In this document: piece by piece, positions 3-63,736 of the stretch
Layout: every line of letters starts with the position of its first letter
Position numbering within the stretch: position 1 is the stretch's first letter
Virus record (IMG/VR): IMGVR_UViG_3300042914_003763
Location: 32,001-96,000 of that record
Source of the DNA: a virus
DNA: 64,000 nt
Strand: one strand, 5' to 3'
Position numbers and translations under genes: made by a program
Notes under the pieces: model-generated
The model's input: only the letters and a program-made list of their open reading frames with translations
Databases searched by the model: none
Told to the model about the DNA's origin: nothing

Positions 3-245
3 TCAAGTAATATTAACTTAGGTAATAAGTTACCTTATGTAAGTCAACAAAGTAAACAAATTAAAAAGTTAATTGAAACAAATAGTGTTATTCCTATTGC
101 ATTACCTAAAGCAGTTAGTCAACCTAAGTTAGTTAGTAATAATATTGCAATAAGAAGTAGTAATAAGAAACAACCGTTAACTAAAGTAGGTTATAGTAGT
201 GCTAAGATAACCATTAATTGGTTGTTTAATATTAACAACAATTAA
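3..245 (+). CDS. 3' end of a basic, low-complexity protein (partial)
   Basis: Frame 3 is open from the window edge to TAA at 243-245 (SSNINLGNKLPYVSQQ...NWLFNINNN). Confidence 0.6.
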   Translation, partial: SSNINLGNKLPYVSQQSKQIKKLIETNSVIPIALPKAVSQPKLVSNNIAIRSSNKKQPLTKVGYSSAKITINWLFNINNN

Positions 246-250
246 CAACT

Positions 251-598
251 ATGTTTTTTTTATCTGATATTGATTCAAGTAATTATGGGAGAGGTAAAGA
301 TAGAAAAAAGAGAAAACAAAAAATGAGTAAGTTAGGTGCAGGGTTACGATTGGCTACTGCTAGTACAGTAGGAGCAGGAATGGGTACATTAGCTAGTTTA
401 CCTTGGAGAATTAAATATGGTAATAAAGCTAATTTAATTGGTGCAGGAATTGGTGCTGGTATATTAGGAGGTGCAGCTTATTTAGATCATAGTAATAGTC
501 CTTATTCGCCTATAGGTAAAAAGAAACATAAACCATTTTCAGATAATCATCCTATGAGAAAATTAATGTTTCAAGATATGAGTCGTATTGATGACTAA
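251..598 (+). CDS. Small basic protein with MFFLSD..SNY.R.KD+KKRK leader and Gly-rich hydrophobic helices; putative virion/internal protein
   Basis: ORF; N-terminus resembles 8933..9670. Confidence 0.6.
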   Translation: MFFLSDIDSSNYGRGKDRKKRKQKMSKLGAGLRLATASTVGAGMGTLASLPWRIKYGNKANLIGAGIGAGILGGAAYLDHSNSPYSPIGKKKHKPFSDNHPMRKLMFQDMSRIDD

Positions 599-2640: not shown

Positions 2641-5600
2641 ATGTCTCAATTAATGAATGATTATCAACAAGAAGTAGCCCTTAAATTTGAAGGAGAAGAT
2701 AATCTTAGTAAAGTTGTTGATAATATTTCTGAGCGTATTAGTAATATGCAAACTAAGGTTATGGCTGCTAACCTTGGACTTGGAGGATTGAAAAAAGTTA
2801 CAGGTGATAATGTAACTACATTAGAAAAATTTGGAAAACAAATTGCAGCTACAGATAAATTATTAATGAAAGCATTCAATGTAGCAACTTTCGCTAAAAT
2901 CGGCGCAGTATTAGCTGATGGTATTAAGAATGCAACAAGAGAATTATCAGGTTTTTCTACAGGAATTAAAGCATTTACCGCTTCAGGATACACAACTCAA
3001 ATAATTGATGATTTCACTAAGGTTCGAGATGCAATCTTAGGTAGTAAAGAAGCAGTAGATCAATTCAGTTTGCAAGCTTTAACTGCTTATAATCGCTACA
3101 AGAAAGCACAAACTGAAGTAGAAGTATTATTCAGTAAAGGTAGTGAATTTATTGGTGATTTAAGTAAGAACATTCAAAATCTTGTTAATAACGATCTCAA
3201 AAATGCTATAAGTTCGATTGATGCGTTAGGTGCAGCATATCAAGCGGCATCTGCTAGTTTCACAGAAGCAAGTGAAAATACGGCTGTGATGACAGCAGGT
3301 TTGAAGTTAGCTAAAGCTGGTGGTGCTGACACTGGTGCGACAATGAAAGTGTTGACACAAACAATACGTGCTTATAATATGTCAGCTACAGACTCCAATA
3401 AAGTAGCAGCAGTATTGAATAAAACTATTCAGTTAGGTATCACAACGATGCCTGAACTTGCTAATGGTTTTGCACAATCAGCCGTAACAGCTAACGCCGC
3501 AAAAGTTAAATTAGAAGAATTAGCAGCAGGCGTAGCAGCACTAACTCTACAAGGTTTTGATACTCCTAGTGCATTAACTGGATTAGAAGCATTATTCAGA
3601 AACATCATTAACAAAACACCTCAAGCAGAAGCGGCATTACGTAGTTTGAGAGATGAAGTAGGTAAACCAATTAGATTCGATATTGCTGAAATTAAGACTA
3701 AAGGTTTTGCCAAGGCATTAGATGATTTAAATAAAGCGGCTAAAGGTAACGCTGAAACATTAGCAACTATTATCCCAGAAGCCACTGCTTACAATACAGC
3801 ATTAGCGTTAATGAGTAATAATGCTCAACAATTAAAAGATAATAGTAAATCAATGTTTGAGATTACTGAAACAGGTAAAAAAGCTAGAGAAACATTAGAT
3901 GAAGTATTTGGCATTAAGATATCATCACAAGCTGAAAAGTTTGATGCAATTATTAATCGTATAACAGAACAATTTATTCAGTTCGGTGAACAAATAGCAC
4001 CATTCTTTCAAGTTGGTGTAGATGTGTTAGAAAAAACTGTTAGTGCTTTATCTTCTATCTCTCCAGAAATGAAGAAGATAATTGCACAATGGATAATATT
4101 TCAAATGGGCGCAGGTCAAGTTACTAATGCAATTGGACAATTAGTAGGTGCAGCAACTCAAGCGTTTATGATATTCCAAGGTTGGAGGATTTTTACAGGT
4201 TTGTTTAATGGTGAATTACTCAAACAAGTAAAGATAGTACAAGAACTTGCTAAAGCTAATATTGGTTTATTACCTGTAGTTAAACAAGTAATAGGAATAG
4301 ATCAACAACATCTGTTACTAGGACAAGAACTTAATTTACAACAACTTAATAGATTTCAAATTATAGGTAAGTTACGTGAACAAAATTTAGGACTAATTGC
4401 ACAAGCTAAACAGTTAATAGGAATAGATCAATCACATCTACTAGTAGGGCAACAATCATTAACATTAGATGAACAACGAGAAGAAATATTAAATAGGTTA
4501 GTTGAACAAAATAAAGACTATAAAAAAGTATCTAAAGAATTAAGTAACATAGAAAAAGAACATTTAGATATTACAACTAAAGTTAAAGAAGCAGAAGATA
4601 AGTTATCTGAATCATATACTAAGTTAGCTAAAGATAAATACGATAAATCAAAGTTAGAAAAAGAACTTAATTCATCTACTGCTAAATCGGCAGATGAACA
4701 ATATCAGTTAGCAGAACGTTATCAACAACAACAAGAACTTATAGCTAAATCTGAAGCTGAATTAGCAGTTAACAAGAAAAATAAACTTGACTTAGATGAA
4801 AAAGCAGCTAAGTTACAACAAGAAGTTGCTGATAAAACCGCTAAAGCTGAAAAAATCTCACAAACAGTTAAAGATAATACGCTCAAAATACAAAAGGCGC
4901 AGACGTTAGCAGAAGAATTACAACGTAAAGCTGTTGAAGCTAGAACATTAGCTGATTTAGCATCTAGTCAAGCTCAAACAGCTAAAGCAGCCGCAGATGC
5001 AGCAGGTGGAACTAATGCAACACTTAACGCAGCAGCAGAAGTAGCATTAGCTAACGCAACAACTCTTGAAACAGCAGCAGAGGTAGCTAACACAACAGCT
5101 ACTAACGCTAATAATGCAGCAAGAACTTTAGGTACAACATTAGCAACAGAACAAGGTATTGCTGAAGGTAGATTAATTAAAATTAGAACATTAGCAGGAG
5201 AACAAATAGTTAAAAATACATTACTTAACCGAATGTTAGGTTTTTCATTTAAAGACTTAATTCCCAAAATGGATGACGTTAAAAAGACAAGTGGCAACTT
5301 ATGGACTAACTTAAATAAACCAATTAATTTTAGTGGAATTAAAGATGGCGTTAGTAGTTTATTTAGTAAGCTTAGTGGAATGTTACCTATTGTTGGACAA
5401 ATAGGAACTAAGTTATTAACATTCGCACCAATACTATTACCAGTAGCAGGAGCAGCAGCATTACTATATGATCAATTCGCTGGTACTTCTGCTCAAGTTA
5501 GAAAACTGCAAGAAGATTTAACTAAGATAAATAAAGAACTAGAAGTATCAAAACTTAAAACACTACAAGACTTAGATAGTAAAGGTAAGTTGAGTTATGA

Positions 5601-13432: not shown

Positions 13433-13579
13433 TACCAATAAAGCGTAGGTACTCTTTGATATAAAGTTAGTAATACTAGCAGAATATTAGACCCTACGCG
13501 ATGATTAAAACAGTGATGGTAAAAAAATCAGTAGAGTTATCGTTAATGTGCTTTATGCTCCGTGTAACCCTACTATTAT

Positions 13580-13650
13580 GGGACTATAGTGTAATGGTAA
13601 CACAAGGTTCTGTCTAAACCTTATTGCAAGTTCAATCCTTGCTAATCTCA
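13580..13650 (+). tRNA. tRNA with GTC (Asp) anticodon, atypical identity elements, no encoded CCA
   Basis: GGGACTA/TAATCTC acceptor, GTGT/ACAC D-stem, AGGTT-CTGTCTA-AACCT anticodon arm, GCAAG-TTCAATC-CTTGC T-arm. Confidence 0.8.
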
Positions 13651-13676
13651 TTAAACATCAAGCTAAAACAACAATT

Positions 13677-52709: not shown

Positions 52710-53786
52710 TTAATAAACTAATTGCATTTTATGTTTGAAGATATTAACAGCAGTAGGTTCAACTGTTACAAGGAATTTCTTATCTGGAATACCTGTTTCT
52801 TCATCACCGTATTCAGTAATTACACACTTCGTAGTAGTTAATACCTTAGTTATATCACCATAATTCAAACCTTCAACTATAAATGAATCTAATAAATCAT
52901 AGTTACTATTAACTCTGAAACTTTTCTTACATAATAAATCAGCAGATACAATTTTGTTTAATATTAAACATTCTGCTAACTTATTATCTTCTAATATTTG
53001 TTGAATAGTAACTAGAAAGTGTTGTTCGTTGTAATCTAAGTTCATATCTTCAATTAACTTAGATGGTAAATCTTTGTGCATATTAACTTCATTAATTAAA
53101 GAAGTAATAGCATCAATAGTTAGATAACTTAACTTACCTATTGTCTCAAGTAAGTCGTCTCTGTATTCTTGATACAGTAATAAATCATCCACAATCTCAA
53201 ATATTGCACTATCAGGTAATCTATCAAACTTTTTATGATATCTAATACGTCCAGGTCTATTAAGTAAGTTATCATCAATTCGTAATTCATTAGTCGTAAA
53301 CAAGAACAATCTCTTATGTACATTAGTGTTAATACCATCTAATAAAGATAACACTTCGCTAACATTATCATCTTCTTCCTGATCGTATATCTTTTCAAAT
53401 TCATCAAAGAATACAATAAGTTCCTGTTGTATTTCGTTAATAAAGTCAGGCATATTAATAAATCTTGCATTAACTATAACAACAGGTAATTGTAATTGAT
53501 TACAAATCATCTTAGCCGTAACAGATTTAGATGTACCTTTCATTCCTGAAAGTAATACACCTACGTTGTTATCTACTTTATTCCAAGTTGTAACCACCTT
53601 ATCTATAAAAGGTGTATTTAGATCATACAATTTAGAAGGTAAAATAAAAGTTTCTGATTGCTTATCTAAAAACAACCCAAACTTACATTCTTTTAATAAA
53701 TAAACACCAGCTTCTAATTCATTTATTTCGGTGTTCTTGTTGTTGTAGAAAAAAGAATTACCACTTAATTGCCATACTTTAGTCAT
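52710..53786 (-). CDS. Classical-clade AAA+ ATPase
   Basis: GMKGTSKS (variant Walker A), FFDEFEK, TTN, NRPGR. Confidence 0.85.
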   Translation of the reverse strand: MTKVWQLSGNSFFYNNKNTEINELEAGVYLLKECKFGLFLDKQSETFILPSKLYDLNTPFIDKVVTTWNKVDNNVGVLLSGMKGTSKSVTAKMICNQLQLPVVIVNARFINMPDFINEIQQELIVFFDEFEKIYDQEEDDNVSEVLSLLDGINTNVHKRLFLFTTNELRIDDNLLNRPGRIRYHKKFDRLPDSAIFEIVDDLLLYQEYRDDLLETIGKLSYLTIDAITSLINEVNMHKDLPSKLIEDMNLDYNEQHFLVTIQQILEDNKLAECLILNKIVSADLLCKKSFRVNSNYDLLDSFIVEGLNYGDITKVLTTTKCVITEYGDEETGIPDKKFLVTVEPTAVNIFKHKMQLVY

Positions 53787-53856
53787 GATATTTATGTCCA
53801 ATTATTTAATTTACCTGGATAGAAATGCAAGGGCGACTAAAACCGTCCATTATATA

Positions 53857-56821: not shown

Positions 56822-57097
56822 CTATCTCACTTCTTCTAATGTTACAGTAAGTTCTTTTTGTTCTAATTTAACTCGATAAGATAATGCAGTAGAATAATCA
56901 GTTGTTATTACAATAGCTCTACCATTAGTAAGTGCTTCTTGAATTATCTTATCGGCAACATCGTAATCATATTTCAATACACTCATTAGTACCTCAACAA
57001 CATACATAGCAGATAAACTACTATCTTCATGTAGTATGATATGCCAGTTGTTATCGTAGTTTGGTTTGATAGACAACAACTCAAATAATGTTTGCAT
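56822..57097 (-). CDS. clpS: ClpS-like protease adaptor
   Basis: IILHED...YVVEVL...A..II.EA...GRAIV...A..Y...L...LTVTLE aligns by eye with ClpS. Confidence 0.75.
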   Translation of the reverse strand: MQTLFELLSIKPNYDNNWHIILHEDSSLSAMYVVEVLMSVLKYDYDVADKIIQEALTNGRAIVITTDYSTALSYRVKLEQKELTVTLEEVR

Positions 57098-59022: not shown

Positions 59023-59808
59023 TTAGGCTATTGTAATTGGTTCATCAATATCCATACCTGTAATAATTTGATCACCAATCGGATGTCTCCACGCCCATTC
59101 ACATCTAGGTAACAATTTACCGTATTCCATTAAATGAAAGAATACATCGTACCCAAACTGTGATGTACGTTCGTTAGCGGCTAGAGTTTGAGGTTCACTA
59201 ACATGATTAGTATCACAACTACCACCCACTCTAGGCATATTACCAATACTCATATCTATCATATTTGGATACAATATGCGCGGATCTGAACCATATAAAA
59301 TTTTATTATGATTCATGGTAGTAACACATTGTCCGAAAGTTGTTGAGTTACCCATATCAATCAATGTCCAATTTTTTGGCTTATTCAAAGCTTCATTGTT
59401 ATTAGGATCGCCTTTCAAATACTCCCAAAATAACTTACGTGTAGGATTGTTATCTACACATAAGAATATTAGAGTTTGTGTATAGCTACTTAACTTTTCA
59501 ATCAGTAAAAAATGTACAGAAGATATGTTATTAACATAACTGTTATAATAATCAAAATTGCGTGATCTATTACTTAACATACCGTAACATTCTGCCAATA
59601 CTTTGGCTTTAGGTTTGCCGATATCACGTGCATAAAACATCTGACGTGATATGTTTTTCTCTTCAACTACATCTTCATCTACTAAAAAAATAGCAGGATT
59701 AATATTCTGACTAACAATGTAGTTACATAACTTAGCTAGTAACCTACTACCATTACCACCACATCCTATTATGACAATATTAAAAAATTCTTTTTTTAAC
59801 TTAATCAT
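59023..59808 (-). CDS. E1/ThiF-family ubiquitin-like activating enzyme
   Basis: GCGGNGS, DEDVVEEKNISRQ, GKPKA, CVDN, IDMGN, candidate catalytic SC, Q.L.AN. Confidence 0.92.
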   Translation of the reverse strand: MIKLKKEFFNIVIIGCGGNGSRLLAKLCNYIVSQNINPAIFLVDEDVVEEKNISRQMFYARDIGKPKAKVLAECYGMLSNRSRNFDYYNSYVNNISSVHFLLIEKLSSYTQTLIFLCVDNNPTRKLFWEYLKGDPNNNEALNKPKNWTLIDMGNSTTFGQCVTTMNHNKILYGSDPRILYPNMIDMSIGNMPRVGGSCDTNHVSEPQTLAANERTSQFGYDVFFHLMEYGKLLPRCEWAWRHPIGDQIITGMDIDEPITIA

Positions 59809-59817
59809 TGTATTCTC

Positions 59818-60657
59818 CTAAAGTATTTCTAAGTAATTACCTTCTGTCAACTCAATGAAATATGAATCGCTATCTGGTTCATTATCAGTTAGATAGTAAC
59901 TGCGATTAGTAAAATCCAAATAGTGTCGTTCTGGACGTTCATCCAACCATTCGTAACTTATATCTATGTAGTATGAAATATAATCTTCATCCTCATCCTC
60001 ATCATCATCAGCAAATACTAACTTATTAGGACTCCACTCTCTAAGTAACTGCTCAACTGTAGGATGAACAACTTCACCATTTATATACAACGACGGTCTG
60101 TAATCGCCGTTTCTAATACAATCCCAAAAATTGTTGTAGGTTTTGTTAATATTTAACTCATCAATCTCTACAGTACCAGTACACCAACTACCTACTGATC
60201 TTTCAACATTACTCAAAGATAAAGCAACGGCTTTATCTTCATGTTCAGTTAAGAAGTAATAAGTATTTCCATCAAAGATCATTAGATGTTCAGGTATATC
60301 TCTTTCGACAAATCCTATAAATTCACTTTGCTTAATTGCACTTTTCCTTTTACAGTTATCATTACGATAAACATTAATACCACCTATACAATCATCGTAT
60401 AAACGGTATGAACAATCCATACAATTCCGCCAATAAAAATCAACAAATGACTTATCGTAATACTTTAAGTTAACGTTAGTTAATGCCTCCATTTGGAACA
60501 TGATTATACCGTCATTATTGATATCTACATAGTCTTCTTCTGTTACGTAATCATCTTCTTCATCACACCATACTGTCTTTCCTTGGTACTCACTGGCGAA
60601 TGAATACGCAACGAAAGCATTTTTACAATTAGCAGGTAGAATAAGTTCCTTTCTCAT
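59818..60657 (-). CDS. Prokaryotic E2-like conjugating protein
   Basis: LSNV....GSWCTG...FW...N.D resembles Prok-E2 family D; lies between JAB and E1. Confidence 0.65.
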   Translation of the reverse strand: MRKELILPANCKNAFVAYSFASEYQGKTVWCDEEDDYVTEEDYVDINNDGIIMFQMEALTNVNLKYYDKSFVDFYWRNCMDCSYRLYDDCIGGINVYRNDNCKRKSAIKQSEFIGFVERDIPEHLMIFDGNTYYFLTEHEDKAVALSLSNVERSVGSWCTGTVEIDELNINKTYNNFWDCIRNGDYRPSLYINGEVVHPTVEQLLREWSPNKLVFADDDEDEDEDYISYYIDISYEWLDERPERHYLDFTNRSYYLTDNEPDSDSYFIELTEGNYLEIL

Positions 60658-61568
60658 TACACAACTCCTTCTTTTTCTAACTTAGCTATTGCTACTTTAA
60701 CTTTATCTAATCCAAACTCTTGAACTAAATATCGCATTTCATCTTCAACACCCCAAGCACTGAAACTTCTTGTGTCAAACAATTCAAAACCATAATCATA
60801 ATAATTAACTACGGCTTTCTTCTTACTGCCTTTAGGTAGCCAACTGTACCAATGTTCAGTAGAGGGTTGTACAACTTGATTTATGTATTGCCTAATTACT
60901 TGATGTACGTTGTTATGATAATCAGTTTCAACGATCATAGCAACGTCAGCATTGAAGCTTATATCGCTAACAATTCCAGATATAGCCGAATCAGGTAGAA
61001 AAAAGCGTTTATTCTGTTTATTCTTACCATCATTACCTACTACAGTAAAACACCATTTATAGGTGCGATTAACTAAGTCAATATTACTGATTACACAGTA
61101 ACCTTGCTTAATGTGCAACTCATCCTTATCATCAACACCAGATGGATGTTTGATTTGCATCGTATTGTGACTATGAATATGCCAGATATTATCATAATTT
61201 GGTAGGTCAGCAGGATACGACAATGATCTACCTGTCTCTAAATCAACACATGATTGATAATTATAATTGGCACTACCACCTGTAACCATCTGAGTAGGAA
61301 TGATAACTTTCCAGTCATTACGGTATTCATCAAAAATGATTCGAGAATGCACCTCTAAGTCTTGTTCGGCATAATCAAGGAATAGTGTCATCAACTTATT
61401 CCATAAATCGTTAGGAACTTTAGGTAAATTAGGATTAAGTTCAAATATTCCCATTACATAATCATCTATACCATCTTCATAAGGTTGATATACAAGATGA
61501 TTACCATAGTAGGTTTCAAGTTGTGCTATTGTTTCACCAGTCTTCAATCTTAAATTTGTGTTTGTCAT
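60657..61568 (-). CDS. JAB/MPN+ metallopeptidase (de-ubiquitinase-like)
   Basis: Upstream Glu (DLEV), IP.Q.V, HIHSHNTM...PSGVDD.DE. Confidence 0.9.
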   Translation of the reverse strand: MTNTNLRLKTGETIAQLETYYGNHLVYQPYEDGIDDYVMGIFELNPNLPKVPNDLWNKLMTLFLDYAEQDLEVHSRIIFDEYRNDWKVIIPTQMVTGGSANYNYQSCVDLETGRSLSYPADLPNYDNIWHIHSHNTMQIKHPSGVDDKDELHIKQGYCVISNIDLVNRTYKWCFTVVGNDGKNKQNKRFFLPDSAISGIVSDISFNADVAMIVETDYHNNVHQVIRQYINQVVQPSTEHWYSWLPKGSKKKAVVNYYDYGFELFDTRSFSAWGVEDEMRYLVQEFGLDKVKVAIAKLEKEGVV

Positions 61569-61592
61569 GATATGTCTCTAATTAGGTGAGCG

Positions 61593-61628
61593 AAAAAGAA
61601 AGGGGCGATCTAATGACCTACCCCTATT
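61593..61628 (-). terminator. Terminator between Ubl genes and JAB
   Basis: On - strand GGGG-TAGGTC-ATTA-GATC-GCCCC then TTTCTTTTT. Confidence 0.55.
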
Positions 61629-61640
61629 GATTACATCATG

Positions 61641-61943
61641 TTAGCCAGCAACACCCGCAGAAAAGCTCACTGCATAGCGTGTACCATTAACGTACTTGCT
61701 ATTGACATCAATAGCTACACCATTAGCAACAACAGTATATTCACGATTGATATCAGTACCACTTAATTTAGCAGCTGATTCAATAACATCTTTCACTGTT
61801 ACTTCATCTTTAATTTTAATTTCTCTCATATCAGCGACAGAGAATTTAACGTTAACTACAGCTTCACCATTGAACTCAGTTGTAACTTCTTGTTGTTGAG
61901 AAGCTTTAGCAGCCGCAGCGAATAAACGGGAAAATAAAGACAT
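61641..61943 (-). CDS. Ubiquitin-like protein 2
   Basis: Start MSLFSRLF after GGAG; beta-grasp pattern (TVKDVIE..., NG..ID); ends SAGVAG. Confidence 0.8.
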   Translation of the reverse strand: MSLFSRLFAAAAKASQQQEVTTEFNGEAVVNVKFSVADMREIKIKDEVTVKDVIESAAKLSGTDINREYTVVANGVAIDVNSKYVNGTRYAVSFSAGVAG

Positions 61944-62036
61944 AACGTACTCCAATTAAATAGGGTAGAACATTGTTATAGTAATCAGTTACGTGAGGAA
62001 ACACTATGTAACCGTCTAGTTAACCGATTTAATTAA

Positions 62037-62333
62037 TTACCCAGCGATACCAGCAGAAAAAGAGATAGAATATTTAGCACCGTTAACAGGTTTGCTATTA
62101 ACATCTACAACTACACCGTTACATAATACAGTGTACTCACGTGATGTGTCAACGTTAGCTAGTTTAGCTTGAGATTCTATAAGTTGTTTTACCGTAGTAG
62201 CATTACCTACTTTAACTTCTCTTTCATCTGCAACTGAATATTTAATCTTGACAGTAGCTTCACCATTGAACTCAGTTGTAACAGTTGTATCAGGATTAGT
62301 AAAGTTCTTAAACAGTTTGGCAAATAAAGACAT
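62037..62333 (-). CDS. Ubiquitin-like protein 1
   Basis: Start MSLFAKLF; paralog of 61641..61943; ends SAGIAG. Confidence 0.8.
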   Translation of the reverse strand: MSLFAKLFKNFTNPDTTVTTEFNGEATVKIKYSVADEREVKVGNATTVKQLIESQAKLANVDTSREYTVLCNGVVVDVNSKPVNGAKYSISFSAGIAG

Positions 62334-62413
62334 AACGTACTCCAATTAAATAATCGTATTAGTTAGTTACTTGAGGAATCACTAGTAACATAGTTAAGTT
62401 AACTTACGATCCA

Positions 62414-63121: not shown

Positions 63122-63736
63122 TTAATTGCTGTATGCAGCTACCTCTACTTGTTGTGGGTTGTTAATGTAATTGATTATCTCAGTTTCATTCATTAGATAT
63201 TCTTGATTGTAAACTACCCATCTGTTACCAAGATGTTTCCTAAGAACTACATAATCTTCATTATTATAGCTAAACCTAACACCTTCTCGAACTGAAGTTA
63301 GAAAAACAGTAACGGTATCTGGTAATGGTGCAATTATTTTTTCTACCTCACTTATAGTTAAACCACCATAACCAATACCGGGATAAGGTAATGCAACAGT
63401 CTTAGTTGGATTAGCATTACACCAACTAACTAACATTTCCACTGATTGCTTAATTAAAGTTGGATCAGAAGCATATTTGTAACTGTTTTTTGTTTGAAAT
63501 GCTCCAACTAATTGACCTTCATAATCAACTACAATTAACCCGTATCTAAAATGCTTATTTCGTTGTTTATCAATTAACCCACCAAACTGTTGTTCGATAC
63601 CAGGATATCGCAACTTAACTGACTTAGCACTACCAGCACCCATAATAAGTGCATTACGATTGTTAAGTTCTGAATTAGTAGTCGCTAAATAAAGATCGAA
63701 CTTAGTATCGAACATATCACCAATTCTTAATTGCAT
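63122..63736 (-). CDS. Macrodomain (ADP-ribose binding/hydrolase) protein
   Basis: GDMF, TTN, MGAGSA...K.RYP, FQTK, ALP.PG.GYGGL. Confidence 0.85.
   Translation of the reverse strand: MQLRIGDMFDTKFDLYLATTNSELNNRNALIMGAGSAKSVKLRYPGIEQQFGGLIDKQRNKHFRYGLIVVDYEGQLVGAFQTKNSYKYASDPTLIKQSVEMLVSWCNANPTKTVALPYPGIGYGGLTISEVEKIIAPLPDTVTVFLTSVREGVRFSYNNEDYVVLRKHLGNRWVVYNQEYLMNETEIINYINNPQQVEVAAYSN

Follow-up and report, generated by a model that had tools for sequence, protein, structure and literature searches.

Five adjacent genes of a tailed phage probably encode a functional and compact system that conjugates and deconjugates ubiquitin-like proteins (Ubls). The genes occupy positions 59023-62333 of a 64,000-nucleotide window (bases 32001-96000 of IMG/VR virus record IMGVR_UViG_3300042914_003763) and specify, in order, two Ubls (Ubl1 and Ubl2), a JAB peptidase, an E2-like protein and an E1. 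Judged from their sequences, the system would be a distant relative of PRTRC, expressed with the replication and early genes, in which a cysteine-based cascade runs from E1 to E2 to target and a JAMM peptidase acts as the eraser. A sequence-only reading of the window had proposed a module of five co-oriented genes. All five open reading frames (ORFs) are present, on the minus strand and where that reading had placed them, and tests by profiles, motifs or models upheld all five assignments.

The E1 and the E2-like protein

E1 belongs to the ThiF superfamily and is the only member of the cassette that reached the threshold of a curated family. The gene (59023-59808, minus strand) encodes 261 amino acids that matched Pfam ThiF (PF00899) at 2.4e-13 and 50.2 bits, above the cut-off of 28.1. 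The best NCBIfam model was PRTRC_ThiF (TIGR03736; 1.8e-20, 73.3 bits, residues 6-232), below its cut-off of 144.75. We aligned E1 with 24 viral relatives and found that the GCGGNG, NISRQ and SC motifs singled out in the sequence-only reading contain positions that never vary. Invariant in 25/25 proteins were G15, G17, G18 and G20, N52, R55 and Q56, D119 and R124, and S197-C198, along with D44, D46, D151, G153, N154, G159, Q160, Q207 and N212; in a second alignment the invariants held in 4/4. E1 has the ATP loop, the Arg, the Mg-binding Asp and the above-cut-off profile of the ThiF superfamily. Its Cys residues are at positions 16, 28, 74, 117, 161, 198 and 236, with no CxxC pairs, as had been noted, and Pfam detected no rhodanese domain. 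Because S197-C198 is invariant across the viral relatives, C198 is the strongest candidate catalytic Cys.

The E2-like protein is best read as having a UBC-like catalytic core. Its gene (59818-60657, minus strand) encodes 279 amino acids laid out as a long N-terminal beta-hairpin, a four-Cys module and then the core, with N150 and the putative catalytic C159. A word-based search for relatives found two close ones only; with HMMER, run in full against 1.84 billion representatives, 19 proteins matched at E ≤0.001. Our alignment of 19 members (19-79% identity) consists of the window protein, P0002 and 17 of the HMMER matches, with P0019 and P0023 left out. C79, C82, C102, N150, G156, C159, G161 and D185 are invariant in 19/19, so that the motif NV..G.WC.G, noticed earlier in this protein, has its N, its C and both of its Gs fixed throughout the family; P8, C90 (at least 90% of the 19), H124 and Y174 are nearly invariant. 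The placing of the candidate catalytic Cys a few residues past a conserved Asn is that of UBC/E2 proteins, and we take the G-S-W-C that follows the Asn to resemble the eukaryotic HPN...C motif.

Profile comparisons connect this core to Prok-E2_D, the E2 of PRTRC. The window protein had no match to Pfam Prok-E2_D (PF14460) or in NCBIfam at E up to 1, and 2 of 16 relatives had sub-threshold Pfam Prok-E2_D matches (3.7e-4 and 0.014). The family profile matched PRTRC protein B of Ralstonia phage Dina, itself Pfam Prok-E2_D at 1.6e-45, with an hhalign probability of 76.7%, and a profile built from 16 viral Prok-E2_D sequences with 90.3% (E 1.5e-6, 73 core columns). In the latter, N150, C159 and G161 align to N229, C237 and G239, the sole invariant core residues of viral Prok-E2_D. 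Comparison with the single E2_D sequences of phages D69 and Arash gave weak matches only.

The predicted structure points the same way, if weakly. An AlphaFold2 model from the 19-row alignment had a predicted local distance difference test score (pLDDT) of 83.7. In it, the N terminus forms the long beta-hairpin and the four-Cys module is small and helical; the other elements are a meander of four strands, the Asn/Cys loop and helices. In an exhaustive VIA fold search with this model, 27 of the first 29 rows had titles of E2 enzymes (Z 3.3-4.9, mostly ~110 residues, root-mean-square deviation 3.3-4.3), and lower rows included UEV, UFC1, Atg10, CBASS E2 and the Bub entry 9eav (BubCD-BubB-BubA) at Z 2.3. 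We favor a UBC-like core because of this near-exclusive list of E2 folds together with the profile match; the Z scores alone are unconvincing.

These weak fold matches, with UEV and RWD proteins among them, would also suit a non-catalytic UEV/RWD-like adaptor, in which case E1 would ligate alone, or the Ubls would act non-covalently and the module would be partly vestigial. Inactive E2-like domains are known in other prokaryotic operon types, according to row 6e of Table 1 in PMC1779556. Such an adaptor is highly improbable given that Asn150, Cys159 and Gly161 are invariant across so diverse a family and align with the invariants of Prok-E2_D, and that two distant lineages keep the five genes intact.

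The four-Cys cluster (C79-x2-C82-x7-C90-x11-C102) lies between the N-terminal hairpin and the UBC-like core. The Prok-E2_D consensus has no such cluster, and it seems to be an innovation of this E2 family. The module probably binds Zn, and it may dock the protein to E1 or be a built-in E3.

In each of the two very long proteins left out of the alignment, P0019 (5081 amino acids) and P0023 (5855 amino acids), the E2 core region (profile ~127-184) was matched in five separate short stretches, which may be E2_D-like motif repeats or a chance beta-rich repeat.

The JAB peptidase and the Ubls

The evidence supports a JAMM/MPN+ (Prok-JAB-like) metallopeptidase, predicted to be the deconjugase, as the product of the third gene (60657-61568, minus strand, 303 amino acids). 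The residues of the motif E...HSH...S..D on which this assignment was originally based (E72, H132, H134, S143 and D146) are invariant in 5/5 homologs and constitute the JAMM/MPN+ motif. The spacer from H to S is 8 residues; that of the canonical JAMM motif is 7. The protein had no match in Pfam, NCBIfam, PHROG or PADLOC. With hhalign, the match of its profile to the Vibrio phage D69 JAB had a probability of 95.3% (E 2.1e-8), and Pfam recognizes that JAB as Prok-JAB (9.9e-9). In the ESM Atlas, 18 of 30 feature matches fell in Prok-JAB clusters, mostly viral, and the structure rows included PRTRC protein A; these matches are leads only, as some shuffled proteins reach a score of 0.94. We rejected the possibility that the protein is a canonical PRTRC protein A (DUF2016 plus Prok-JAB), since hhalign gave 0.4% to protein A of Dina and Pfam gave no match.

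Models support the view that both small proteins are beta-grasp Ubls. Ubl1 (62037-62333, minus strand) has 98 amino acids from its ATG and Ubl2 (61641-61943, minus strand) has 100. They are paralogs of 59% identity that end in SAGIAG and SAGVAG, with the stop codon right after the Gly, as the sequence-only reading had described. Each thus has the exposed C-terminal Gly that adenylation-ready Ubl modifiers need, and because they end exactly there, a peptidase would be unneeded for their maturation. The tail G-x-A-G (G95, A97, G98) is invariant in 5/5 Ubls from two lineages. Ubl1 consists of a conserved N-terminal MSLFxxLF, a variable linker and a ThiS/MoaD-like beta-grasp domain (about residues 20-98); its last Lys is K87. 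A hydrophobic N-terminal peptide is conserved in all five Ubls of the subtype described below (MSLFxxLF, or NFFGRF in L047, 4133-4993), on a linker of 13-40 residues that is not conserved; by its appearance, this peptide looks like a docking motif.

The secondary structure of the AlphaFold2 model of the Ubl, bb-a-bb-b, is in the beta-grasp order. Although the pLDDT of this model was 44, an exhaustive VIA fold search with it produced the beta-grasp matches that the sequence-only reading had called for: 46 of the 50 listed rows were by title ubiquitin, SUMO, Ubl, FERM-RA or MoaD structures (Z 4.7-5.8, 62-77 residues, root-mean-square deviation 2.7-3.9), and the titles of the remaining 4 could not be classified. 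MoaD chains and 8tyz ('bacterial E1-E2-Ubl complex', with the Bil Ubl) were among the matches. Scores in the ESM Atlas were 0.88 or lower and serve as leads only.

We also co-folded E1 with residues 18-98 of the Ubl, a kind of complex model that had been suggested as a check. The result, a score of 0.50 (runs of 0.54, 0.35 and 0.50), is weak support for binding. The best control scored 0.00, the partner pLDDT was 79-81 and the runs shared at least 83% of their contacts. In a benchmark whose counts are only rough here, since custom alignments were supplied, 58 of the 80 solved complexes passed the mark, as did 2 of the 110 mismatched pairs; passing scores of 0.60 or less came from only 7 of the 80 solved complexes and from both of those mismatches.

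The family to which these Ubls are closest leaves room for a different chemistry. They had no Pfam match to Prok_Ub (PF14454) and hhalign values below 1% to Dina protein C and the Arash Ubl, and a profile of the five Ubls gave 0.2% against 8 viral Prok_Ub sequences. Matches to Pfam ThiS were weak (0.078 for Ubl1 and 0.011 for Ubl2), as was that of Ubl2 to NCBIfam thiS (0.036), and one source labels P0026, a Ubl relative of 91% identity, 'sulfur carrier protein ThiS'. The cassette might accordingly be a sulfur-carrier system, whose ThiS/MoaD-like proteins would be adenylated by the ThiF-like E1 and thiocarboxylated, so as to supply sulfur for a cofactor, tRNA or phage DNA modification, with the JAB and the Cys-rich protein as accessories or a persulfide relay. 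MoaD is among the fold matches, E1 has the size of ThiF/MoeB, and sulfur-assimilation clusters of JAB, ThiS and E1 are among the operons described by Iyer et al. (2006, PMC1779556). However, E1 has neither a rhodanese domain nor CxxC pairs, and its nearest family is PRTRC_ThiF and not ThiF/MoeB. Pfam and NCBIfam found no cysteine desulfurase, sulfurtransferase or thiolation enzyme among the flanking ORFs, in agreement with the sequence-only reading, which had seen no adjacent sulfur-transfer genes. The fourth protein has the Asn/Cys/Gly core of Prok-E2_D, and the JAB would have no maturation role, since the C termini of the Ubls require no processing. Likeness of the Ubls to ThiS gives the sulfur-carrier system some weight, but it leaves the E2_D-type protein unexplained, and we consider it unlikely.

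A five-gene subtype in distant phages

The same gene order recurs in a distantly related virus. The sequence-only reading had proposed a survey of synteny, and through a distant relative of the E2-like protein, P0014, we found L047, a 111,188-bp IMG/VR viral contig with the order Ubl, Ubl, JAB, four-Cys E2, E1. Three of its proteins are 25-31% identical to those of the window: the 301-amino-acid JAB (31%, E 1.5e-30), the four-Cys E2 (25%, E 2.9e-15) and the 295-amino-acid E1 (28%, E 7e-23). Its Ubls are two small proteins ending in ..SGTAG. Within a few kb of the L047 cassette is a Sak4-like gene, 55% identical to the one in the window. Since the same five-gene order is found in so distant a relative, the arrangement is beyond chance and represents a type, not a one-off.

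P0008 (37% identical to the E2-like protein) and P0006 (47% identical to the JAB) have the same lengths listed for their longest contigs, 32594 and 13226, which suggests a third lineage of the subtype. By sequence comparison, what is new here is a compact subtype with two ThiS-like Ubls, a JAB, a four-Cys E2 and an E1 of 261 amino acids, without ParB or proteins E and F.

Proposed pathway and its alternatives

For the cassette, the analysis establishes the genes with their motifs and homology, the likeness at fold level and the shared gene order; the catalysis, thioesters and protein targets of the pathway that we propose are predictions from homology. E1 would bind either Ubl, adenylate its terminal Gly and load the Ubl on Cys198 as a thioester. 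The Ubl would then move to Cys159 of the E2-like protein, where Asn150 would act as the Asn of the E2 'HPN' motif, and from there the E2-like protein would transfer it to amino groups of the target. Because no E3 is encoded, the E2-like protein may perform this last transfer by way of its own four-Cys module and long beta-hairpin. The JAMM peptidase would take the Ubl off again. Since the Ubl carries its conserved N-terminal peptide on a flexible linker, a tagged protein would acquire that peptide as well. The system may serve takeover, self-regulation or conflict between phages; the roles proposed in the sequence-only reading, takeover, degradation or counter-defense, are guesses.

The added peptide could mark proteins for degradation or recruitment. 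The Ubls would place their N-terminal peptide on host or phage proteins and hand these to a host machine, for example the Clp protease, in a viral, prokaryotic analog of ubiquitin/Pup proteolysis that has two interchangeable tags and in which the Zn-bearing E2 doubles as the E3. We regard this specific role as improbable.

The same chemistry could serve instead to exclude competitors, with Bil-like tagging of the structural proteins of competing phages or host mobile elements. A conflict gene, for a DarG-like macrodomain, is two genes upstream with a 196-amino-acid ORF between, and PRTRC-type cassettes are carried by many kinds of mobile element. On the other hand, PADLOC matched no defense model to the cassette other than a weak match of E1 to CBASS E1-E2 models, and in the distant L047, too, the cassette is beside the replication/recombination module. 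A core infection function accounts for that shared site more readily than an accessory weapon does, and we consider the weapon unlikely.

Several observations weigh against the conjugation cascade that we prefer. The Ubls resemble ThiS/MoaD sulfur carriers more than Prok_Ub, and their model, built from three sequences, reached a pLDDT of only 44. The co-fold with E1 passed in the weak band and may reflect likeness to solved E1-Ubl complexes; because such complexes (e.g., MoeB-MoaD) have already been solved, it speaks for likeness and is not proof of binding. No E3 and no target are identifiable from the sequence of the cassette. The JAB, the E2-like protein and the Ubls have no threshold match in Pfam, NCBIfam, PHROG or PADLOC, and no PDB sequence matched the JAB or the E2-like protein as single sequences or the JAB, E2 and Ubl profiles. 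The E2 fold that had been predicted for 59818-60657 has its list of E2 enzymes in favor, but Z values of at most 4.9 are in a range that possibly reflects just a common arrangement, and Foldseek of the model against PDB and BFVD returned no match at E ≤0.001. Finally, in a midpoint-rooted FastTree of 26 E1s, those of the window and L047 did not group together; each is a long, deep branch.

Organization and neighborhood of the cassette

The source is an uncultured, distinct tailed phage. Its genome of 117,113 bp has direct terminal repeats and is rated complete. The window, with a G+C content of ~31%, includes genes for a tape measure of 2090 amino acids, a DNA polymerase, a primase-helicase, an exonuclease and the Sak4-like protein. 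Among GenBank phages, none has a DNA polymerase more than 29.5% identical to this one, the nearest being Flavobacterium phages, and the 3.3-kb region had zero blastn matches to GenBank phages. Searches for close relatives with the JAB profile (IMG/VR and JGI metagenomes), the E2 profile (IMG/VR) and P0014 (metagenomes) came back empty.

The cassette is at the end of a long minus-strand replication/early block, and its gene junctions are tight or overlapping. The start of the E2 gene overlaps the stop of the JAB gene (TAATG), and the E1 gene starts 9 nucleotides (nt) past the E2 stop, with AGGAG 6 nt before its ATG. The 5' leader of Ubl1 (62334-62384, minus strand) has a duplicate before Ubl2 (61944-62006). 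Both leaders have the same 19-nt stretch with GGAG and, farther upstream, a common 20-nt box; in the window, each of the two sequences has 2 matches, where 0.01 would be expected. Since an identical GGAG leader precedes each ATG, the Ubls are taken to be 98 and 100 amino acids and not longer forms starting at TTG. We rejected the duplicated leader as a phage-wide promoter box; within the window, it was found at the two Ubl genes only.

Directly 3' of Ubl2 is a hairpin of 10 pairs followed by a U-run (61593-61625, minus strand). Its minimum free energy is -14.4 kcal/mol over 66 nt (z -1.7), and 12 of 200 shuffled sequences folded equally well. A consensus terminator scan did not report it. The hairpin is a possible partial terminator or attenuator, which would leave the Ubl transcript in excess of that for the enzymes.

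Terminator-like sites at 63079-63051 and 57843-57825 flank a larger block around the cassette. This block also has ORFs of 196, 128 and 218 amino acids, none with a Pfam or NCBIfam family match or an L047 homolog, and for that reason we left them out of the cassette. The 218-amino-acid ORF was considered as PRTRC protein E and rejected (E 1.1 against protein E of Dina).

Outside this block are genes of other kinds. The strong terminator-like hairpin at 63079-63051 separates the cassette from the DarG-like gene (63122-63736, minus strand, 204 amino acids), whose product matched the NCBIfam model for the macrodomain of the DarG antitoxin, a DNA ADP-ribosyl glycohydrolase, at 5.3e-9, below the cut-off, and PHROG 335, 'phosphatase'. 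It is likely a counter-defense gene. About 1.9 kb downstream of E1 is a gene for a ClpS adaptor (56822-57097, minus strand; Pfam PF02617, E 1e-9, 38.5 bits versus a cut-off of 23); that ClpS links tagging to Clp proteolysis is pure speculation. An AAA+ ATPase is encoded in the early block (52710-53801, minus strand; Pfam AAA, 5.3e-12), and a single tRNA gene, tRNA-Asp(GTC), is between tail genes (13579-13651, plus strand).

Related cassettes in other phages

PRTRC-type Ubl cascades are, on sequence evidence, common and widespread in phage genomes. The sequence-only reading had emphasized that the phage itself carries the whole cascade. The genes are real, but carrying them is not exceptional. 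A tblastn search of GenBank phages with E1 found 10 records. Ralstonia phage Dina (gp02-gp07) has the full PRTRC set: E, C (Prok_Ub), F (alpha-hel2), B (Prok-E2_D), A (DUF2016 plus Prok-JAB) and ThiF. Salmonella phage Arash and Vibrio phage D69 have a Ubl, proteins of ~300 and ~85 amino acids, E2_D, JAB and E1. A scan of IMG/VR with the E1 profile matched 72 stretches, from which 42 loci (L005-L046) were confirmed. Local hidden Markov models, built from members of these same loci, several of which are near-duplicates, found Ubl, E2_D, JAB and E1 in 41/42; the exception is a 4.4-kb fragment. The order Ubl, ~300 amino acids, ~85 amino acids, E2_D, JAB, E1 was seen in 40/42. A check of 11 sampled loci against Pfam found Prok-E2_D in 7, Prok-JAB in 10 and Prok_Ub in 2. 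The Ubls of the 42 loci mostly end in ..TGTKG or ..AVGTKG at the stop codon, or are tandem repeats.

Some annotations at these loci deserve comment. In Arash (L002), a 66-amino-acid Prok_Ub-type Ubl ending in ..RRTGTKG is encoded at 107-307 (plus strand) in a frame that differs from that of the annotated coding sequence, so the GenBank call at 102-320 is probably wrong. The E2, JAB and E1 of Arash are annotated merely as 'hypothetical' or 'structural'. We rejected a virion role based on the 'structural' labels, as the virion preparation from which these labels come, with 116 proteins detected, also held RNA polymerase, according to the portion of PMC10585845 that describes it. In D69 (L003), the Ubl gene (394-1185) encodes three tandem Ubl units, each ending in ..TGTKG, an arrangement like that of polyubiquitin. 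The E1 match in D69 (4001-4951) begins ~200 nt ahead of the annotated coding sequence, and the gene may be split or mis-started. The related L021 has an ORF for an HNH/AP2 homing endonuclease (4436-4981) between the JAB and E1 genes.

Comparison with known systems

PRTRC-type Ubl cassettes were predicted in 2006 (PMC1779556), and PRTRC is a catalogued system. The related Bil, Bub and CBASS systems are now important in phage-host biology. For phages, the portion of Iyer, Burroughs and Aravind (2006, PMC1779556) drawn on here describes just tail-assembly pairs of Ubl and JAB. Our full-text search of one library, with supplements outside its scope, found no paper on a phage-encoded E1-E2-JAB-Ubl cascade and no PRTRC experiment. 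The JAB, E2 and Ubl families escape four profile libraries and so are annotated as hypothetical everywhere.

The subtype in the window is minimal. It has five genes in 3.3 kb, processing-free Ubls, a single-domain E1 and a four-Cys E2, and two distant phage lineages have kept it. A cassette this small suits reconstitution of the chemistry in E. coli. The cassette could reveal what benefit a bacterial virus draws from a ubiquitin-like system of its own, the mirror image of the host Bil defense.

Of the systems that the sequence-only reading had named as kin, PRTRC (TIGR03734-03742) is the nearest, whereas Bil and Bub are more remote. By its composition, PRTRC matches operon type 6d, as that type is defined by Iyer et al. 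(PMC1779556). The window and PRTRC share an E1 nearest to PRTRC_ThiF, an E2 core homologous to Prok-E2_D (protein B), a Prok-JAB-type peptidase, a Gly at the conjugation end of the Ubl, and carriage on mobile DNA, including phages. They differ in gene order, which is Ubl, Ubl, JAB, E2, E1 in the window and Ubl, F, E2, JAB, E1 in PRTRC. PRTRC has ParB, protein E and protein F (alpha-hel2), whereas Pfam and NCBIfam detected none of these in the flanking ORFs of the window. Protein A of PRTRC carries DUF2016, which was not detected in the JAB of the window, and protein C is a Prok_Ub, in contrast to the two Ubls of the window, which are ThiS-like and not detectably Prok_Ub. The E2-like protein has an invariant four-Cys insert that the E2_D consensus does not, and many PRTRC-type Ubls are tandem or extended at the C terminus, whereas those of the window end at Gly. 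No protein of the cassette reached the cut-off of a PRTRC model.

The six-gene cassettes of large phages (Arash, D69 and L005-L046) are similar in that a phage carries Ubl, E2, JAB and E1 genes and the Ubl has a free C-terminal Gly. They hold the closest E1 (at most 37% identity) and the closest JAB (hhalign 95%) to those of the window. Their Ubls are unlike those of the window, being of the Prok_Ub type, ending in ..TGTKG and often tandem di- or tri-Ubls. Their JAB (~400 amino acids) and E1 (346-500 amino acids) are longer than the window proteins, and the two extra genes are absent from the window.

The ThiS-ThiF and MoaD-MoeB pairs also combine a small beta-grasp protein that has a C-terminal Gly with a single-domain adenylating E1 of ~250 amino acids. 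Unlike them, the window adds genes for an E2-like protein and a JAB, and it has no rhodanese domain or CxxC pairs in E1 and no sulfur donor or acceptor enzymes nearby.

Bub (type 6E/DUF6527) is likewise a diverged prokaryotic operon of E1, E2, Ubl and peptidase, which, in the portion of PMC11601596 drawn on here, works through oxyester intermediates with an E1 and an E2 that lack a catalytic Cys. In contrast, Cys198 and Cys159 are invariant in the families of the window proteins, and the cassette has no DUF6527 protease.

Bil (BilABCD, types I and II) resembles the cassette in having a Ubl, an E2, a JAB-type deubiquitinase and an E1 in one operon, a Gly at the end of the Ubl, and Cys-based E1 and E2 enzymes (PMC10557695, in part). 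The Bil E1, as portrayed in that part, pairs an inactive adenylation domain with an active one and also has a CYS domain that is mobile; the E1 of the window, a single domain of 261 amino acids with one ThiF match, is too short for this architecture. None of the five proteins matches a Bil component in sequence. Hosts use Bil as a defense against phages, whereas the set described here consists of phage genes.

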